A stretch of 64,000 nucleotides of DNA from Gammaproteobacteria bacterium (GTDB lineage: Bacteria; Pseudomonadota; Gammaproteobacteria; Steroidobacterales; UBA11654): contig PBDY01000027.1 of NCBI GenBank assembly GCA_002717445.1, positions 32,747-96,746 on the forward strand, given 5' to 3'. The notes beneath the pieces were generated by a model, which searched no databases, was not told the origin of the DNA, and worked only from the letters and a program-made list of their open reading frames with translations. The translations under genes and the position numbers were made by a program. Shown piece by piece: positions 3,591 to 60,548 of the stretch (position 1 is its first letter; each line of letters opens with the position of its first letter).

Positions 3591-3649
3591 ATGGTAGTGA
3601 ATAAAAATCGTATTATGTAAATTTCTTATAATTAATAGGGGTAAAAAAC

Positions 3650-5323
3650 ATGGCATTTCTAGTCTCGCCTGGTGTACAGGTAAAAGAAATAGATTTGACC
3701 AATGTGGTGCCAGCAGTTTCATCTAGTACGGGTGGAATCGCAGGTTCGTTTCAATGGGGGCCAGTAGATGAAATAACTACTGTAAGTTCAGAGAAACAAT
3801 TGGTTGAACTATTTGGACAGCCAGATGACAACACTTATCATAGTGTTATATCCGCTGCCCAATTTTTAAGCTACGGGAACACATTACGTGTTGTCCGTGG
3901 GGTAGGTACTTCAGCTCTGAACGCAACTTCAGGTGGAAGTGGTCTACTAGTAAAAAACGATACTCATGCCACTAGTGTTACAGGTCAGGATGTGGTTGCA
4001 AGATATCCTGGAACAACTGGTAATAATATTGGCGTATCAATATGTCCCGCTTCAACTTCGGCCTTTGCGGCTTGGGATTGGGCGAGTCATTTTTCTGCTG
4101 CTCCAGACACATCTTCGGGTGCGACTGCAGTAGGTGGAAGCAAAGACGAATTACACGTAGTCGTTTATGACTCTCTTGGTGGTATCACCGGAACTCAAAA
4201 CGAAATATTAGAAACGTATTCGTTCCTTTCTCAAGGTTCAGATGCGAAGGATTCGTCAGGTTCAAGTAACTATGCAAAAAATGTTATCAATAACAAGTCA
4301 GAGTGGATTCGAATTGTAGACGGACTTACTGGTCTATCTAACTTCGGAGCTGCACTTGCTTCACAGACTTTTGATGTAACAGTCGAAGGTTCTACTGATG
4401 GCGACTATGTTGATGTACTTCAACACGGTGTTGATGACAACGTATTAACAGCAGGTGAAACAACAACTGCTCTTGATATGTTTGCTGATGCAGAAACAGT
4501 TGATGTTTCTCTACTAATGATGTCAAACGCTAATCTTTCTTCTACCGATTCAACAACTGTATGTAATAAGTTGATTGCAATGGCAGAAGCACGTAAAGAT
4601 TGTGTTGCGTTTGTATCACCTTACTTCTCTGCCGATACGGCTGCAGAAGTAAAAACATGGGCTGCTACACTAACACACTCATCTTACGCATTTGCAGATT
4701 CTTCTGCATTGTATGTGTATGATAAGTATAATGATGTGTATCGCTGGTTAGGTGCATCTGCCTCAATGGCAGGTTTATGTGCAAATGCAGATTTAACTGC
4801 AGATGCGTGGTTCTCTCCAGCAGGATTCACACGAGGTAATGTTCGTAACGTTACTAAGTTAGCGTACAATCCAAATCAGTCAGATAGAGATGATTTATAC
4901 AAAGTTGGTATTAACCCGATTGTAACATTTCCGGGTCAAGGTACAGTTTTATATGGTGACAAGACATTACAAACTAAACCAAGTGCGTTTGATAGAATCA
5001 ATGTTCGTAGATTGTTCATTGTTCTTGAGAAGGCAGTATCGACTGCAAGTAAAGCTTCTTTATTTGAGTTTAATGATGAGTTTACAAGGGCGCAGTTCCG
5101 TAATATGGTAGAACCATTCTTACGTGATGTTAAAGGTCGTCGTGGTATCACAGACTTTAAAGTAGTATGTGATGACACCAACAATACTGGTAACATTATT
5201 GATACCAATAGGTTTGTTGCAGACATTTATATCAAACCAGCTCGTTCTATCAACTTCATCACACTTAACTTTATCGCCACGAGAACTGGTGTAGAGTTTA
5301 GTGAAGTAGCAGGGGGTGAATAA
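3650..5323 (+). CDS. gp18: Tail sheath protein
   Basis: MAFLVSPGVQVKEIDLT start, WFSPAG, FDRINVRRLF, FEFNDEFTR. Confidence 0.97.
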   Translation: MAFLVSPGVQVKEIDLTNVVPAVSSSTGGIAGSFQWGPVDEITTVSSEKQLVELFGQPDDNTYHSVISAAQFLSYGNTLRVVRGVGTSALNATSGGSGLLVKNDTHATSVTGQDVVARYPGTTGNNIGVSICPASTSAFAAWDWASHFSAAPDTSSGATAVGGSKDELHVVVYDSLGGITGTQNEILETYSFLSQGSDAKDSSGSSNYAKNVINNKSEWIRIVDGLTGLSNFGAALASQTFDVTVEGSTDGDYVDVLQHGVDDNVLTAGETTTALDMFADAETVDVSLLMMSNANLSSTDSTTVCNKLIAMAEARKDCVAFVSPYFSADTAAEVKTWAATLTHSSYAFADSSALYVYDKYNDVYRWLGASASMAGLCANADLTADAWFSPAGFTRGNVRNVTKLAYNPNQSDRDDLYKVGINPIVTFPGQGTVLYGDKTLQTKPSAFDRINVRRLFIVLEKAVSTASKASLFEFNDEFTRAQFRNMVEPFLRDVKGRRGITDFKVVCDDTNNTGNIIDTNRFVADIYIKPARSINFITLNFIATRTGVEFSEVAGGE

Positions 5324-20936: not shown

Positions 20937-21959
20937 ATGTTAAAATCATTCTTTTGGACTAGACAAAACGCCTTTTACGCTTGGGTAATGTTATCATTAC
21001 TATTAGGTATCGCTTGGTATACTGTAGAGATACTAGTATTTTACAATGCGTGGAACAAAGAAATCTATGATGCGATTCAATCTTTACAAGAGGAAAGGTT
21101 TTGGACATTGTTCTTAGGATTTGACCTCAGTAGGATAACAGAATTTGTAATGCTTAAGGAAGATACTATGCCATCATTCCTTGAGATTATAACTTTATAT
21201 ACACCTATAGCAGTATATGCCACTTGGCAGACACAAAGGTATTGTTTCAAATGGAGAGAAGCGAATACGCATCACTACGCAAGAAGGTGGGAAAAATCAC
21301 CAGCAAAGATTGAAGGTGGTTCTCAACGTATCCAAGAAGACCTTATGATATTTGGTAAGACACTACAGAGTTTATTTTCAGGGTTCTTCTCAGCAATCTT
21401 AGTATTGTTTGCGTTTCTTCCTATACTTTGGGAATTATCAGAAGGATTACCTGTTTGGAATGGTAAGATAATTCCGGGATTTCTTGTATGGGTTGCATTA
21501 GGTGTTTCAATTGGTGGTACTTTAATATCTCTTATACTGGGTTGGAAACTACCCAAACTTGAATATAATAATCAGGTAGTAGAAGCGAAGTTTAGAAAAC
21601 AACTCGTATTCTCTGAGGACGATTTCAAGGCACGAGCAACTGATGTGTTGTTCCCAATGTTTAGTGCAGTTAAGAGAAACTATTATCGACTCTTTAATTG
21701 GTATATGGGATTTGGAGTATGGCAAACAGCATTCGGTCTGGCAGTAGGTAACTTAGCATTAGTAGTATTAGCGCCTGCATACTTTGACCAACTAATTACA
21801 CTTGGAGTATTATTCCAAGTACTCAACGCCTTTGGGCGAGTAGAATCGTCTATGGGATATTTTATAGACCGTTGGACTACAATCGTAGACTTCTTATCGG
21901 TTATTCGTCGTATCCGTGAATTTAACAAAGCTTTGGACGAGGCAGAACAGAAGGGATAA
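20937..21959 (+). CDS. sbmA: SbmA/BacA-family peptide transporter
   Basis: MLKSFF start, FKWREA, IEGGSQRIQED, LPKLEYNNQVVEAKFRKQLVFSED, FSAVKRNYYRL, WTTIVD all track E. coli SbmA motifs. Confidence 0.9.
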   Translation: MLKSFFWTRQNAFYAWVMLSLLLGIAWYTVEILVFYNAWNKEIYDAIQSLQEERFWTLFLGFDLSRITEFVMLKEDTMPSFLEIITLYTPIAVYATWQTQRYCFKWREANTHHYARRWEKSPAKIEGGSQRIQEDLMIFGKTLQSLFSGFFSAILVLFAFLPILWELSEGLPVWNGKIIPGFLVWVALGVSIGGTLISLILGWKLPKLEYNNQVVEAKFRKQLVFSEDDFKARATDVLFPMFSAVKRNYYRLFNWYMGFGVWQTAFGLAVGNLALVVLAPAYFDQLITLGVLFQVLNAFGRVESSMGYFIDRWTTIVDFLSVIRRIREFNKALDEAEQKG

Positions 21960-21960
21960 T

Positions 21961-22422
21961 ATGAATAAAGTTTTACAAAGATGGTATCTTTTTGTAATGG
22001 TCTATCTCTGTGGTGTATATGCTTTATACACTAACGGAATATTCGTAGACATATATGAGAATGATGTTACCAAACTAACCTTTGTTATATATGGATTGTT
22101 TATACTTTCCACAGGTATTTTGGGGTGGGTGTCGCATAAGTGCAAACTTGGCCCAAAGAAATTTAAACACAATAAGTTCACAGATATGTGTTGGTTTATG
22201 AGTGATGCAATGATGACACTCGGACTGATAGGTACGGTTGCAGGTATGATATTCCTATTCGGAATGATATTCGGTAATATCGACCCAAGTGTACCAGAGG
22301 ATTTGAAAAATGCATTAGGTCATATGGCAACTGGATTGTCTACTGCAATGTATACAACGATAGTAGGTATGGTGTGTTCTTTACTGACTAGGGTTCAGTT
22401 AATGAATATCGAATATGGATAA
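21961..22422 (+). CDS. MotA/TolQ/ExbB-family proton channel subunit
   Basis: TLGLIGTVAGMI...GLSTAMYTTIVG TM-pair signature. Confidence 0.8.
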   Translation: MNKVLQRWYLFVMVYLCGVYALYTNGIFVDIYENDVTKLTFVIYGLFILSTGILGWVSHKCKLGPKKFKHNKFTDMCWFMSDAMMTLGLIGTVAGMIFLFGMIFGNIDPSVPEDLKNALGHMATGLSTAMYTTIVGMVCSLLTRVQLMNIEYG

Positions 22423-23089
22423 CAAGACAAGATTTAAAAGTCTGATTAGTTTCTTAGACCTGTTGTGGATTCTTCTTGCAGGTTTTGGTGCAATGTTTAT
22501 TATTGCATTTCTTCTCATACAACCACCAGCGAAACATGCCGATATTATTAAGAAGGCAGAGTATATGATTATCCTAGAATGGGATAAGAAATCTTCTGAT
22601 GATATTGATTTGTGGGTGATGAATCCAAAAGGGGGAGTAGTATCCTTTAGGGGTAAGAGTATGGGGTATATGAACTTAGAGAAAGATGACCTTGGTTCTA
22701 AGAATGATAAAGTTATAGATGAATATGGTGTTGCACACGTTCTCGAAATAAATAGAGAAGTAGTTACCCTTAGAGGTGTTATGAAAGGAGAATATAAAGT
22801 TATGGTACACGTTTATAATAGATATCCGGTTTCGGAAACTCCCGAATGGTTTACAATAGAAATTGTAAAGATAAATCCATATAAACAAGTGTATTTGTCA
22901 ACAGGTACATATACATTCAGAGGACAAGAACATTCTGTTGTTAGATTTACCGTAGATGCAGATGCGAATTTCAAAGGGTTCAACTCTTTAAATACTAACT
23001 TCATCAACGCTAGTAGGACATCACCAGAAGAAAGAGCAGAAGATGTAATAACTAATCAAGGCGCTCAAGGTTATACAGGAGATTACTAA
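22415..23089 (+). CDS. ExbD/MotB-like single-TM partner with a periplasmic beta domain
   Basis: N-terminal SFLDLL (TM Asp) followed by a hydrophobic helix; LEWD...DIDLWV.NP domain. Confidence 0.55.
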   Translation: MDNKTRFKSLISFLDLLWILLAGFGAMFIIAFLLIQPPAKHADIIKKAEYMIILEWDKKSSDDIDLWVMNPKGGVVSFRGKSMGYMNLEKDDLGSKNDKVIDEYGVAHVLEINREVVTLRGVMKGEYKVMVHVYNRYPVSETPEWFTIEIVKINPYKQVYLSTGTYTFRGQEHSVVRFTVDADANFKGFNSLNTNFINASRTSPEERAEDVITNQGAQGYTGDY

Positions 23090-23553
23090 TGGATATTGAA
23101 AATTCAATCGCACTAGTTTCTTTATCAATCTTTCTATTAATGACATTCTCATTGATAGTGATGATTTGGTATGGTCGTTCTAACAAACTGATATACTTAG
23201 TGATACCTCTGGTTCTTTGGTTAAGTGTATCAACTTATAGTACTATACAAGGATTACTTGGATATCCTGTACTAGCAAAAGATATACCCGAAGGAAACAT
23301 ATATCTATCTCACACAGTAGGAAAAGACCAAGAATGGTTATACTTCTGGTTAATTGATATAAATACATATGTACCTAAAGCTTATAAGATAGTGTACACA
23401 GAGGAAGGTGAAAAGTTACTTGCAGAAGCGAAAGAGAAATCAGGTCTTGGTAATCCTCAAGGATTGAAACTTCAACTAGGAAGTAGTGAACAAGAAACTG
23501 AAAAACAAATAACAATATACAATTTTAATAAACTAGAAGGAATAATCAAATGA
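23089..23553 (+). CDS. Two-TM membrane protein, hypothetical
   Basis: Two N-terminal hydrophobic helices then LGYP; translationally coupled to its neighbours. Confidence 0.6.
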   Translation: MDIENSIALVSLSIFLLMTFSLIVMIWYGRSNKLIYLVIPLVLWLSVSTYSTIQGLLGYPVLAKDIPEGNIYLSHTVGKDQEWLYFWLIDINTYVPKAYKIVYTEEGEKLLAEAKEKSGLGNPQGLKLQLGSSEQETEKQITIYNFNKLEGIIK

Positions 23554-24200
23554 GTAAAAAACCGTCAAGAATGGATATCATAGGACAGAACGGAAATGAT
23601 GGCGACCACTATGACCAAGTAGATACAGCGCCACCACCGCCGCCACCAGGAATGGATACAGTCATTCCTAAATTGGACTTGATGAAAAAGAACATCAACT
23701 TCTTTATGGGTGATGTTACAATGCAATCAATGGAACCAATATGTGAGTGGATTATTTCTGCAAACCTATCTGATACTCCCCCAAAGGAATTGACACTAGT
23801 TGTTTGTTCAAGAGGTGGTGACCTCAATGCTTGTTTCGCCCTCGTAGATTGTATGAGGGGTTCTAAGATACCTATCCGAACCATTGGTTTGGGTATGATT
23901 GCATCTTGTGGACTCTTAATGTTTATCTCAGGTACGAAAGGTCGTAGAGTACTTACACCAAATACTGCAATACTATCACATCAATACTCTTGGGGTTCAG
24001 TTGGTAAGGAACACGAACTCTTTGCAAGGGTTAAGGAAATGGAATTAACTACTCATAGACTACTGAGTCATTATAAGAAGTGTACTGGATTAAATGAGAA
24101 GAAAATCAGAGAACATTTACTACCACCACATGATGTGTGGTTGGGTGCTGACCAAGCATTAAAATTAAAACTATGTGATAAGATATCGGATATTACTTGA
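23550..24200 (+). CDS. clpP: ClpP-like protease
   Basis: SRGGD, TIGLGMIASCG (catalytic Ser), ILSHQ (His), DVWL (Asp). Confidence 0.85.
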   Translation: MSKKPSRMDIIGQNGNDGDHYDQVDTAPPPPPPGMDTVIPKLDLMKKNINFFMGDVTMQSMEPICEWIISANLSDTPPKELTLVVCSRGGDLNACFALVDCMRGSKIPIRTIGLGMIASCGLLMFISGTKGRRVLTPNTAILSHQYSWGSVGKEHELFARVKEMELTTHRLLSHYKKCTGLNEKKIREHLLPPHDVWLGADQALKLKLCDKISDIT

Positions 24201-57193: not shown

Positions 57194-57424
57194 ATGAGAA
57201 GTGGCCCTTTCAAAAAACAAATCAATGAGGATACGACGGGAGTCGTAATGAGAATACTCACAACTTATAAATTAGTCAGAGGTGTAATGGTAAGAGAGGT
57301 TGCAACAAGAAGATATACTTCACTAGGTAGTTATCACGACACGACAGAAGTGACGCCTCTCGGTGCAATGTTTCCCTCAGATGTGGAATATATGCAAGAT
57401 AAAAAACTTGACAAAGCAGACTGA
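57194..57424 (+). CDS. Hypothetical protein
   Basis: ORF directly after a late promoter. Confidence 0.55.
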   Translation: MRSGPFKKQINEDTTGVVMRILTTYKLVRGVMVREVATRRYTSLGSYHDTTEVTPLGAMFPSDVEYMQDKKLDKAD

Positions 57425-57436
57425 AGCAGGTATAAT
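57408..57436 (+). promoter_or_regulatory. Sigma70-type promoter
   Basis: TTGACA-17-TATAAT, perfect consensus. Confidence 0.8.
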
Positions 57437-57582: not shown

Positions 57583-57714
57583 AAAACAGAAGATTCTTCT
57601 ACTGATACAGGCAATGAATCTTATAAGTAAAACTACGAGTATGCACATTCTACTCGCAGATGTACTTCCGAAATGAAGTAAAACTATTTTTTAAAATAAC
57701 ATAGGAGTAAAAGT

Positions 57715-57939
57715 ATGTTAGATAAAATCACAAACGGCGTTTCAGCCGCAACGGCTATTGCCATGTCATTAATCGGTTTAGCAATTATGCTACAAATCGT
57801 ATTTGGTGGCTCTGTACCTTTCCTTGGCGGAGACGTCATTGGTACAATCATTGGTATAGTTCATCAACTAGGCGACGCTGGCTTGGTTGGTTTAATTTCC
57901 GCTGCTGTACTTTGGAAATTACTAACTCATGATGAATAA
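57715..57939 (+). CDS. Small hydrophobic membrane protein
   Basis: TAGGAG RBS; almost entirely hydrophobic and Gly/Ala-rich. Confidence 0.75.
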   Translation: MLDKITNGVSAATAIAMSLIGLAIMLQIVFGGSVPFLGGDVIGTIIGIVHQLGDAGLVGLISAAVLWKLLTHDE

Positions 57940-57954
57940 CTAAGTTTACACACC

Positions 57955-58260
57955 ATGTGAAATGAACGTTTAGTGGAGTTCGTATAAACCACTTCTCAAC
58001 AGCGTTAATGTTGGGAATAGATATACTTAGGACGGCGGTGCAAGTCCGCCCTCCTCCACCAAATGTGTATTCTGCGAGTATATATTTGGGGGGAGAGTCA
58101 GATATCGACTGGGTATGCCATCTATCTCAATTCGCTAGTCAAGACTAGACTTTAAAATCAAAAATTAATCGGCAATCAAAACGATTATTTACTGGCTGCA
58201 TGATAGTCAGTTTGAGGTTTCGCCCGAGTTCCTTATCACCAAATACTCGGGTTTTTCTTT
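57955..58260 (+). ncRNA. ssrA: Circularly permuted (two-piece) tmRNA
   Basis: T-arm GGCGG-TGCAAGT-CCGCC plus CTCCTCC-A-CCA (58034-58061) precedes the 5' half GGGGGAG (58089-58095), forming a 7-bp acceptor stem with G3.U70. Tag ORF GNQNDYLLAA-stop at 58171-58203. Outer boundaries are approximate. Confidence 0.9.
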
Positions 58261-60173: not shown

Positions 60174-60548
60174 ATGGCATATTCAAAAGAAGTTTTAGAA
60201 CATTATAATAATCCACGCAACGTGGGTAAATTCGACCCGAAAACAGATTCGGTAGGAACTGGTATGGTCGGTGCGCCTTCCTGTGGTGATGTTATGAAAC
60301 TACAAATTAAAGTTAAAGATGATATAATTGAAGATGTAAAGTTTAAAACATATGGTTGTGGTTCTGCAATCGCTAGTTCTAGTATGGTTACTGAAATGAT
60401 TAAAGGTATGACATTAGACCAAGCACAAGCAGTAAAGAATACGGATATCGTAGAATCATTAAGTCTACCGCCAGTTAAGATACATTGTAGTGTACTGGCC
60501 GAAGATGCAATCAAAGCTGCAATAGAAGATTATCGGTCAAATACTTGA
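60174..60548 (+). CDS. iscU: Fe-S cluster scaffold protein IscU
   Basis: MAYS...NPRNVG, APSCGD, FKTYGCGSAIASSS, LPPVKIHCSVLAEDA. Confidence 0.96.
   Translation: MAYSKEVLEHYNNPRNVGKFDPKTDSVGTGMVGAPSCGDVMKLQIKVKDDIIEDVKFKTYGCGSAIASSSMVTEMIKGMTLDQAQAVKNTDIVESLSLPPVKIHCSVLAEDAIKAAIEDYRSNT

Follow-up and report, generated by a model that had tools for sequence, protein, structure and literature searches.

An intact, beta-like permuted tmRNA gene conserved between nrdA and nrdB in a clade of marine T4-like phages

The 64,000-nucleotide stretch of DNA analysed here (the window) carries, at 57998–58252 of the forward strand, an intact permuted (two-piece) tmRNA gene that is built like the beta-type genes of bacteria and is conserved in a clade of marine T4-like phages. 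We think it quite likely, judging from the sequences of the gene and its relatives, that the product is cut into two base-paired pieces and rescues stalled ribosomes together with the SmpB of the host during infection.

The window is part of a 106-kb contig (C28), which was annotated from 76 window proteins and 41 proteins of the remaining contig, and which is a T4-like phage by its genes (terminase, sheath, portal, gp23, gp32, gp45, polymerase B, RegA and nrdA/nrdB). ARAGORN called a single gene in the entire 64 kb, a permuted tmRNA with the tag GNQNDYLLAA, and Rfam gave one gathering-level match, to RF04321 tmRNA_permuted (58001–58203, 82.5 bits against a cut-off of 47, E 2.8e-14). ARAGORN and a covariance-model search were among the checks named in the first-pass annotation, which had proposed a phage-borne permuted tmRNA and had given the lack of a covariance-model hit as grounds for refutation. 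Both were positive; together with covariation in relatives, they support that proposal. As in RF04321, the segment with the T-arm and CCA lies 5' of the segment that starts with G1, with a spacer between them; the standard RF00023 order, with the 5' acceptor strand first and CCA last, is not that of the window gene. The region 57995–58260 has a predicted fold of -83.9 kcal/mol (z = -4.27; 0/200 shuffles were as good) that contains the T-arm, helix 2, the spacer hairpin and the tag hairpin. The features of the gene and its upstream region, all on the forward strand, are as follows.

57408..57436, +, sigma-70 consensus promoter, perfect at 12/12 positions; candidate start of an ORF-tmRNA transcript
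57665..57690, +, conserved leader hairpin and AAACTA motif, preceding the 74-aa ORF
57715..57939, +, 74-aa hydrophobic ORF, directly upstream of the tmRNA throughout the clade; no known family
57998..58061, +, acceptor piece: helix 2 3' strand from 58001, T-arm 58034-58050, acceptor strand and encoded CCA 58051-58061; predicted 5' end
58062..58088, +, spacer of 27 nt (26-133 nt in relatives), a hairpin prolonging the acceptor stem, with excision predicted
58089..58252, +, coding piece: G1 acceptor strand, D-loop region, helix 2 5' strand, pk1, tag frame, tag hairpin, pk2 and T-run; predicted 3' end
58137..58159, +, pk1: 4-bp stem 58137-58140/58148-58151 and 2-bp second stem 58143-58144/58158-58159
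58171..58206, +, tag reading frame: GNQNDYLLAA and the stops TGA TAG
58191..58211, +, tag-stop hairpin, from fold and covariation (4/7 pairs compensated)
58213..58251, +, pk2, the 3' pseudoknot, with 6/7 and 1/5 pairs compensated and a loop motif in common with the beta_tmRNA model

All coordinates given beforehand for the tRNA-like domain and the tag agree with the sequence: the T-arm, the CTCCTCC-A-CCA segment and the spacer match base by base, GGGGGAG at 58089–58095 does form a 7-bp acceptor stem with G3.U70, and GGC to GCA at 58171–58200 translates to the tag as previously read.

To identify relatives, viral loci were scanned with the 74-aa ORF, and the best 80 of 82 loci were considered. 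Both acceptor halves were found right after this ORF in 65 of these 80, and 64 of the 65 genes are complete to the last pseudoknot. In 54 of the 65, the locus also includes nrdA on the upstream side and nrdB on the downstream side. One of the remaining 15 loci ends at a contig edge, while 14 have no gene there. The gene was also missing at this spot in some close nrdB relatives (such as L125–L131), and among 80 nrdB relatives three (L122, L123 and L138) were called as having a permuted tmRNA. Its absence from some close nrdB relatives indicates that the gene is dispensable. Of the 80 loci (L203–L282, the best 80 of 82), 60 have an iscA-like gene, usually directly after the tmRNA; in the window there is an iscU at 60174, and iscA lies elsewhere on C28.

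The structure of the RNA is under selection. We aligned 36 sequences (the window, 33 of the 44 distinct clade members, L122 and L138), leaving out genes with 133-nt spacers and near-duplicates, and compared them with a 62-pair structure drawn from L203. Standard pairs made up 96.6% and 27 pairs had two-sided changes, values reached in 0/500 shuffles, with 34–48% paired in slid controls; since the sequences are kin and the structure was drawn from one of them, the shuffle controls overstate significance. The real structural evidence is the compensated pairs in helix 2, the T-arm, pk1, the tag hairpin and pk2, and compensatory changes were present in nearly every helix of the 36 sequences. The acceptor stem is 98% paired, with G3.U70 invariant (36/36), and the parts of helix 2 are 88–100% paired. 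The window copy sits on a long branch (0.33) and has 72% identity to its nearest relative, yet its helix 2 refolds fully. The 2-bp second stem of pk1 is paired in 65/65 relatives, with a switch from C-G to G-C in three of them and in the window.

The first-pass annotation had described pseudoknot-like pairings at 57962–57993 and 58213–58251. Covariation supports the 3' one; the upstream one does not hold, and pk1 had been overlooked. The upstream pseudoknot can be drawn in the window, but only 39.7% of its cells are paired in the 36 homologues, a value that 403/500 shuffles reach; 57940–58000 has no fold signal (z = +0.38), and 64 of 65 relatives have a plain hairpin at the site. Without this non-conserved element, two pseudoknots are left, pk1 and pk2, and both belong to the coding piece. 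The 5' limit of 57955 given earlier was also too far upstream, as the homologous RNA begins near 57998.

All 62 tags that were read out end in LAA, the frame is open, and differences in length are whole codons. Translation would resume at a Gly codon in 63 of the 65 relatives. Between the fixed acceptor strands the 35 distinct spacers are all hairpins, most with a basal stem, as expected of a part that is excised. Fourteen of the 65 relatives encode ACCT and would require the CCA-adding enzyme of the host.

In six of the 65 relatives (L235 [3646-3798], L236, L237, L241, L262 and L275) the spacer is 133 nt long and contains a 41-codon ORF with a CxxC...CPHC zinc-ribbon pattern, whose frame continues to a stop codon within the coding piece, giving 50 aa in all. 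Differences between the copies are mostly at third codon positions. A free-standing copy precedes nrdB in L203 (L203:2655-2780); the ORF has a weak match to phrog_21525 and is absent from the window. In the literature searched, we found no protein gene within a tmRNA spacer.

The 74-aa ORF is probably co-transcribed with the tmRNA. It has no Pfam or PHROG family, although 341 homologues were found, and it is common in marine phages and in the bacterial family f153; homologues in bacteria are sometimes in tandem. The 4-bp leader hairpin is paired in 26/26 sequences, with compensatory changes at three pairs, and has a CGAAA-type loop followed by AAACTA; a variable hairpin lies upstream of it, and the motif has no Rfam match. 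Promoters are less uniform: a pattern search found a sigma-70-like promoter within 400 nt in just 14 of 63 relatives, and 18 of 65 have an ATAAATA that resembles a late promoter. Four RNA runs compared with the sequence at 80% yielded no piece that falls on the tmRNA, a result that does not bear on its expression.

The assembly from which C28 derives is 1.5 Mb in size and 84% complete. Compared with the other 30 contigs, C28 shows no long stretch of matching DNA and only distant similarity between proteins, so it probably ended up in the bin of the bacterium by chance; the assembly's own bacterium was considered as the host of the phage and is not supported, for the same reason. The tmRNA gene of this bacterium, next to smpB on contig C20, is of the standard one-piece form (tag ANNNNYALAA; RF00023, 205.8 bits). 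An assembly that has two tmRNA genes of different form, on C28 and C20, is a misbinning trap for tmRNA surveys. The SmpB family was found on C20 only and is absent from C28 and from four related virus records, which extends to the entire 106-kb contig the earlier statement that the window has no smpB. Beyond the window C28 also has a TctA-family transporter and a DruA-like protein (L283:13705-16241; L285:1693-2792).

The ClpP-like gene at 23550, to which the first-pass annotation had drawn attention beside the tmRNA, is real, as its catalytic Ser, His and Asp align with those of ClpP2. Its link to the tmRNA is not supported: none of five related tmRNA-bearing virus records (31–78% complete) has a Clp protease match and, therefore, we do not treat ClpP as a conserved partner. 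In the window it is part of a run (20937–24200) with an SbmA/BacA transporter, a MotA/ExbB-like gene and two unknowns.

We propose that the RNA would be transcribed with the small upstream ORF from the sigma-70 promoter at 57408–57436. The spacer would be lost through cleavage by host RNase P at 58089 and trimming back to the CCA at 58061, and host AlaRS would charge the acceptor piece via G3.U70. The charged two-piece RNA would be loaded with host SmpB for ordinary trans-translation, in which the ribosome would resume at GGC (58171) and add A-GNQNDYLLAA. A tag ending in LAA is a ClpXP-type degron. The likely benefit for the phage would be extra rescue capacity at a time of host RNA decay and high turnover of phage mRNA. 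Consistent with the two-piece form, permuted tmRNAs are described as acting as two unligated pieces in the available text of two studies (PMC11915505; PMC3978253).

A functional RNA whose main use is counter-defence is unlikely; it would replace host tmRNA that an anti-phage RNase has destroyed and escape this RNase through its foreign sequence and two-piece form. Such a role would fit the patchy presence of the gene among relatives and its identity of only ~50% to the standard tmRNAs of marine gammaproteobacteria, and defence systems directed at tmRNA (CoCoNuTs) have been predicted (PMC11090510, in the part available); the core of the gene, however, varies little within the clade (85% mean column identity in the coding piece), which is atypical of an escape race. 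Very unlikely, in our estimation, is an RNA that acts as an inhibitor or re-router, either competing with host tmRNA for SmpB or altering the fate of rescued proteins by means of its tag. There is a precedent in the tag-less RNA of phage DS6A, which inhibits the endogenous tmRNA in E. coli according to the accessible portion of PMC11915505, and the window gene has two features that could be read in this way, the Gly resume codon, where the bacterial tmRNAs seen here have Ala, and a reversed A-U at acceptor pair 6. Unlike in the DS6A RNA, conservation extends to the tag frame and its C-terminal LAA, to pk1 and to the resume context, and Gly-start tags occur in alpha-type phage genes as well. 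As for a non-functional relic or chance look-alike, model scores below those of bacterial genes and the relatives that have no gene might suggest one, but the E-value of 2.8e-14, the compensatory changes in nearly every helix and the 62/62 intact tags make its probability negligible. Ribosome rescue with host SmpB is thus the reading we prefer.

The best tmRNA-clan model for the window gene was beta_tmRNA (RF01850), which matched over its full length, including the pk2 loop motif, with 63 bits, a score under its cut-off of 84 (three lower clan matches were left out of this ranking). The same model was best for four of four further clade loci (L204, L216, L250 and L258; 55–83.9 bits, all below the cut-off). 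Clade members range from 55 to 88 bits, one of those scored passing the cut-off, and the genes that exceed it are L122, L138 and L271. RF01849, the alphaproteobacterial or Melnitz-type model, gave no gathering-level match to the window gene and is outranked by the beta model. Bacterial beta-type genes at 84 metagenome loci have the same layout, with a short helix 2 and two pseudoknots. Two pseudoknots, both in the coding piece, are the rule in the betaproteobacterial tmRNA family, and the window gene has this arrangement. Sharkady and Williams reportedly described a betaproteobacterial two-piece tmRNA, of the Dechloromonas lineage, in 2004. One metagenome contig has two divergent beta-type tmRNA genes back to back (L344:1022-1346 and 1399-1741).

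Compared with the bacterial beta two-piece tmRNA, the window gene shares the short helix 2, pk1, the single 3' pseudoknot with the same loop motif and the lack of a 5' pseudoknot. It differs in its sub-threshold RF01850 score and ~54% identity, in the A-U at acceptor pair 6 and the Gly resume codon, and in having the small ORF and leader hairpin instead of a conserved -10 box directly before helix 2. A coding-piece model run on 78 loci placed other phage genes first (89, 72 and 62 bits), with bacterial beta genes at 19 bits or below and SUP05-like standard genes at 16–22 bits. In a tree of 58 rows (48 permuted and 10 standard, with four intended rows left out) and 229 columns, the clade had support of 100/100 and grouped with L122, L138 and L057 (93/85); it fell on the beta side with weak support (88/78) from these 229 columns, and the 48 permuted rows split from the 10 standard ones at 100/99. 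Judged by sequence, then, the window RNA is built like a beta-type gene while lying outside strict RF01850 membership, with other phage genes as its closest relatives.

These data also bear on the idea that the gene arose by a fresh phage-side permutation of its own host's one-piece tmRNA, which would be a fourth origin of the two-piece form. Forcing the clade together with SUP05-like standard genes lowered the lnL by 26, and the AU test does not formally reject this grouping (p-AU 0.065); the coding-piece model, moreover, ranks bacterial beta genes no higher than standard ones. We nevertheless regard such an origin as extremely unlikely, because the best full-length match is to beta_tmRNA including the pk2 loop motif, the sister genes L122, L138 and L271 exceed the beta cut-off, permuted and standard rows separate at 100/99, and the short helix 2 and two-pseudoknot layout fit bacterial beta genes.

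Weak hints point to SUP05-like bacteria with a one-piece tmRNA as the host. Cellular homologues of the 74-aa ORF were present in 32 of 61 f153 genomes (up to 55% identity) versus 2 of 300 in a class-wide sample, and dsrA was found in 4/5 f153 genomes tested, which suggests that f153 corresponds to SUP05/Thioglobaceae. The f153 genomes have standard tmRNA, 0/41 exceeding the permuted cut-off. In addition, an ORF of a sister phage (L127:5175-5471), situated between nrdA and the small ORF, has matches in 2/4 f153 genomes (49% over ~55 aa); we take its product to resemble a sulfur globule protein. Other candidate markers did not favour f153: ORF 34457 had a match in 1/21 f153 genomes and 9/160 elsewhere, the porin in 1/3 (36%) and SbmA in 2/4 (34–38%). 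IscU was uninformative, with 70–77% identity to many families, and DsrC was found in 0/5 related virus records. Methylophilaceae and SAR11 were not knowingly in the sample used for these comparisons. A more specific picture, which we offer tentatively and consider doubtful as a whole, is that SUP05-like sulfur oxidisers with only a one-piece tmRNA are infected by a widespread phage clade whose two-piece tmRNA, beta-derived, circulating among phages and with a Gly-start tag, would run on host SmpB, and that the excised spacer would provide room for a small zinc-ribbon gene, the mRNA of which would lose its stop codon when the tmRNA matures.

Two-piece tmRNAs of marine myophages are already published (PMC9004378, in the text available), and the window gene adds to them. 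The available part of that study reports a two-piece tmRNA in Melnitz, a Methylophilales/OM43 phage, with a proposed role in maintaining the hijacked translation machinery (Buchholz et al., 2022), puts the two-piece share at 53 of 133 unique phage tmRNAs, and tabulates permuted calls in Stenotrophomonas and Pseudomonas phages. As far as the accessible text of PMC11915505 goes, 79 phage tmRNAs were counted there, and its 97,179-sequence tmRNA database may include the window gene. Like Melnitz and other marine myophages, the window phage is a T4-like marine myophage with a complete permuted tmRNA gene and no SmpB of its own. The Melnitz gene, in contrast, is of the alphaproteobacterial type with a glutamine riboswitch, while the window gene is beta-like, has no riboswitch hit and lies in the nrdA–nrdB interval; capsid identity between the two phages is 49%, the best value for any cultured phage being 52%. 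BLAST of the tmRNA region against 50,697 phage records gave no match beyond flanking noise. The literature searched yielded neither this phage clade nor a tmRNA of a SUP05 phage, and no phage tmRNA whose function had been tested during infection.

Permuted tmRNA genes are common in viral contigs, based on a general pattern scan that found at least 119 viral loci, 95 of those listed being called permuted tmRNA. Since ARAGORN recovers just 33 of the 65 clade genes (counted by eye), surveys would undercount such genes. We also found unannotated permuted tmRNA genes in the cultured phages XacN1, DLP6 and RpAliso (L430:1176-1596; L431:1140-1483; L432:939-1282). Those of Xanthomonas phage XacN1 and Stenotrophomonas phage DLP6 pass the beta model (108 and 104 bits) and belong to phages of gammaproteobacteria; their sequences are distant from that of the window gene, and their tags start with Ala. 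The hosts of XacN1 and DLP6 use one-piece tmRNA. The window phage is uncultured; these two cultured phages offer a bench model. The clade itself adds a well-covarying, beta-like family of 65 loci (from the best 80 of 82) and suggests that the movement of two-piece tmRNAs among phages does not depend on host type.
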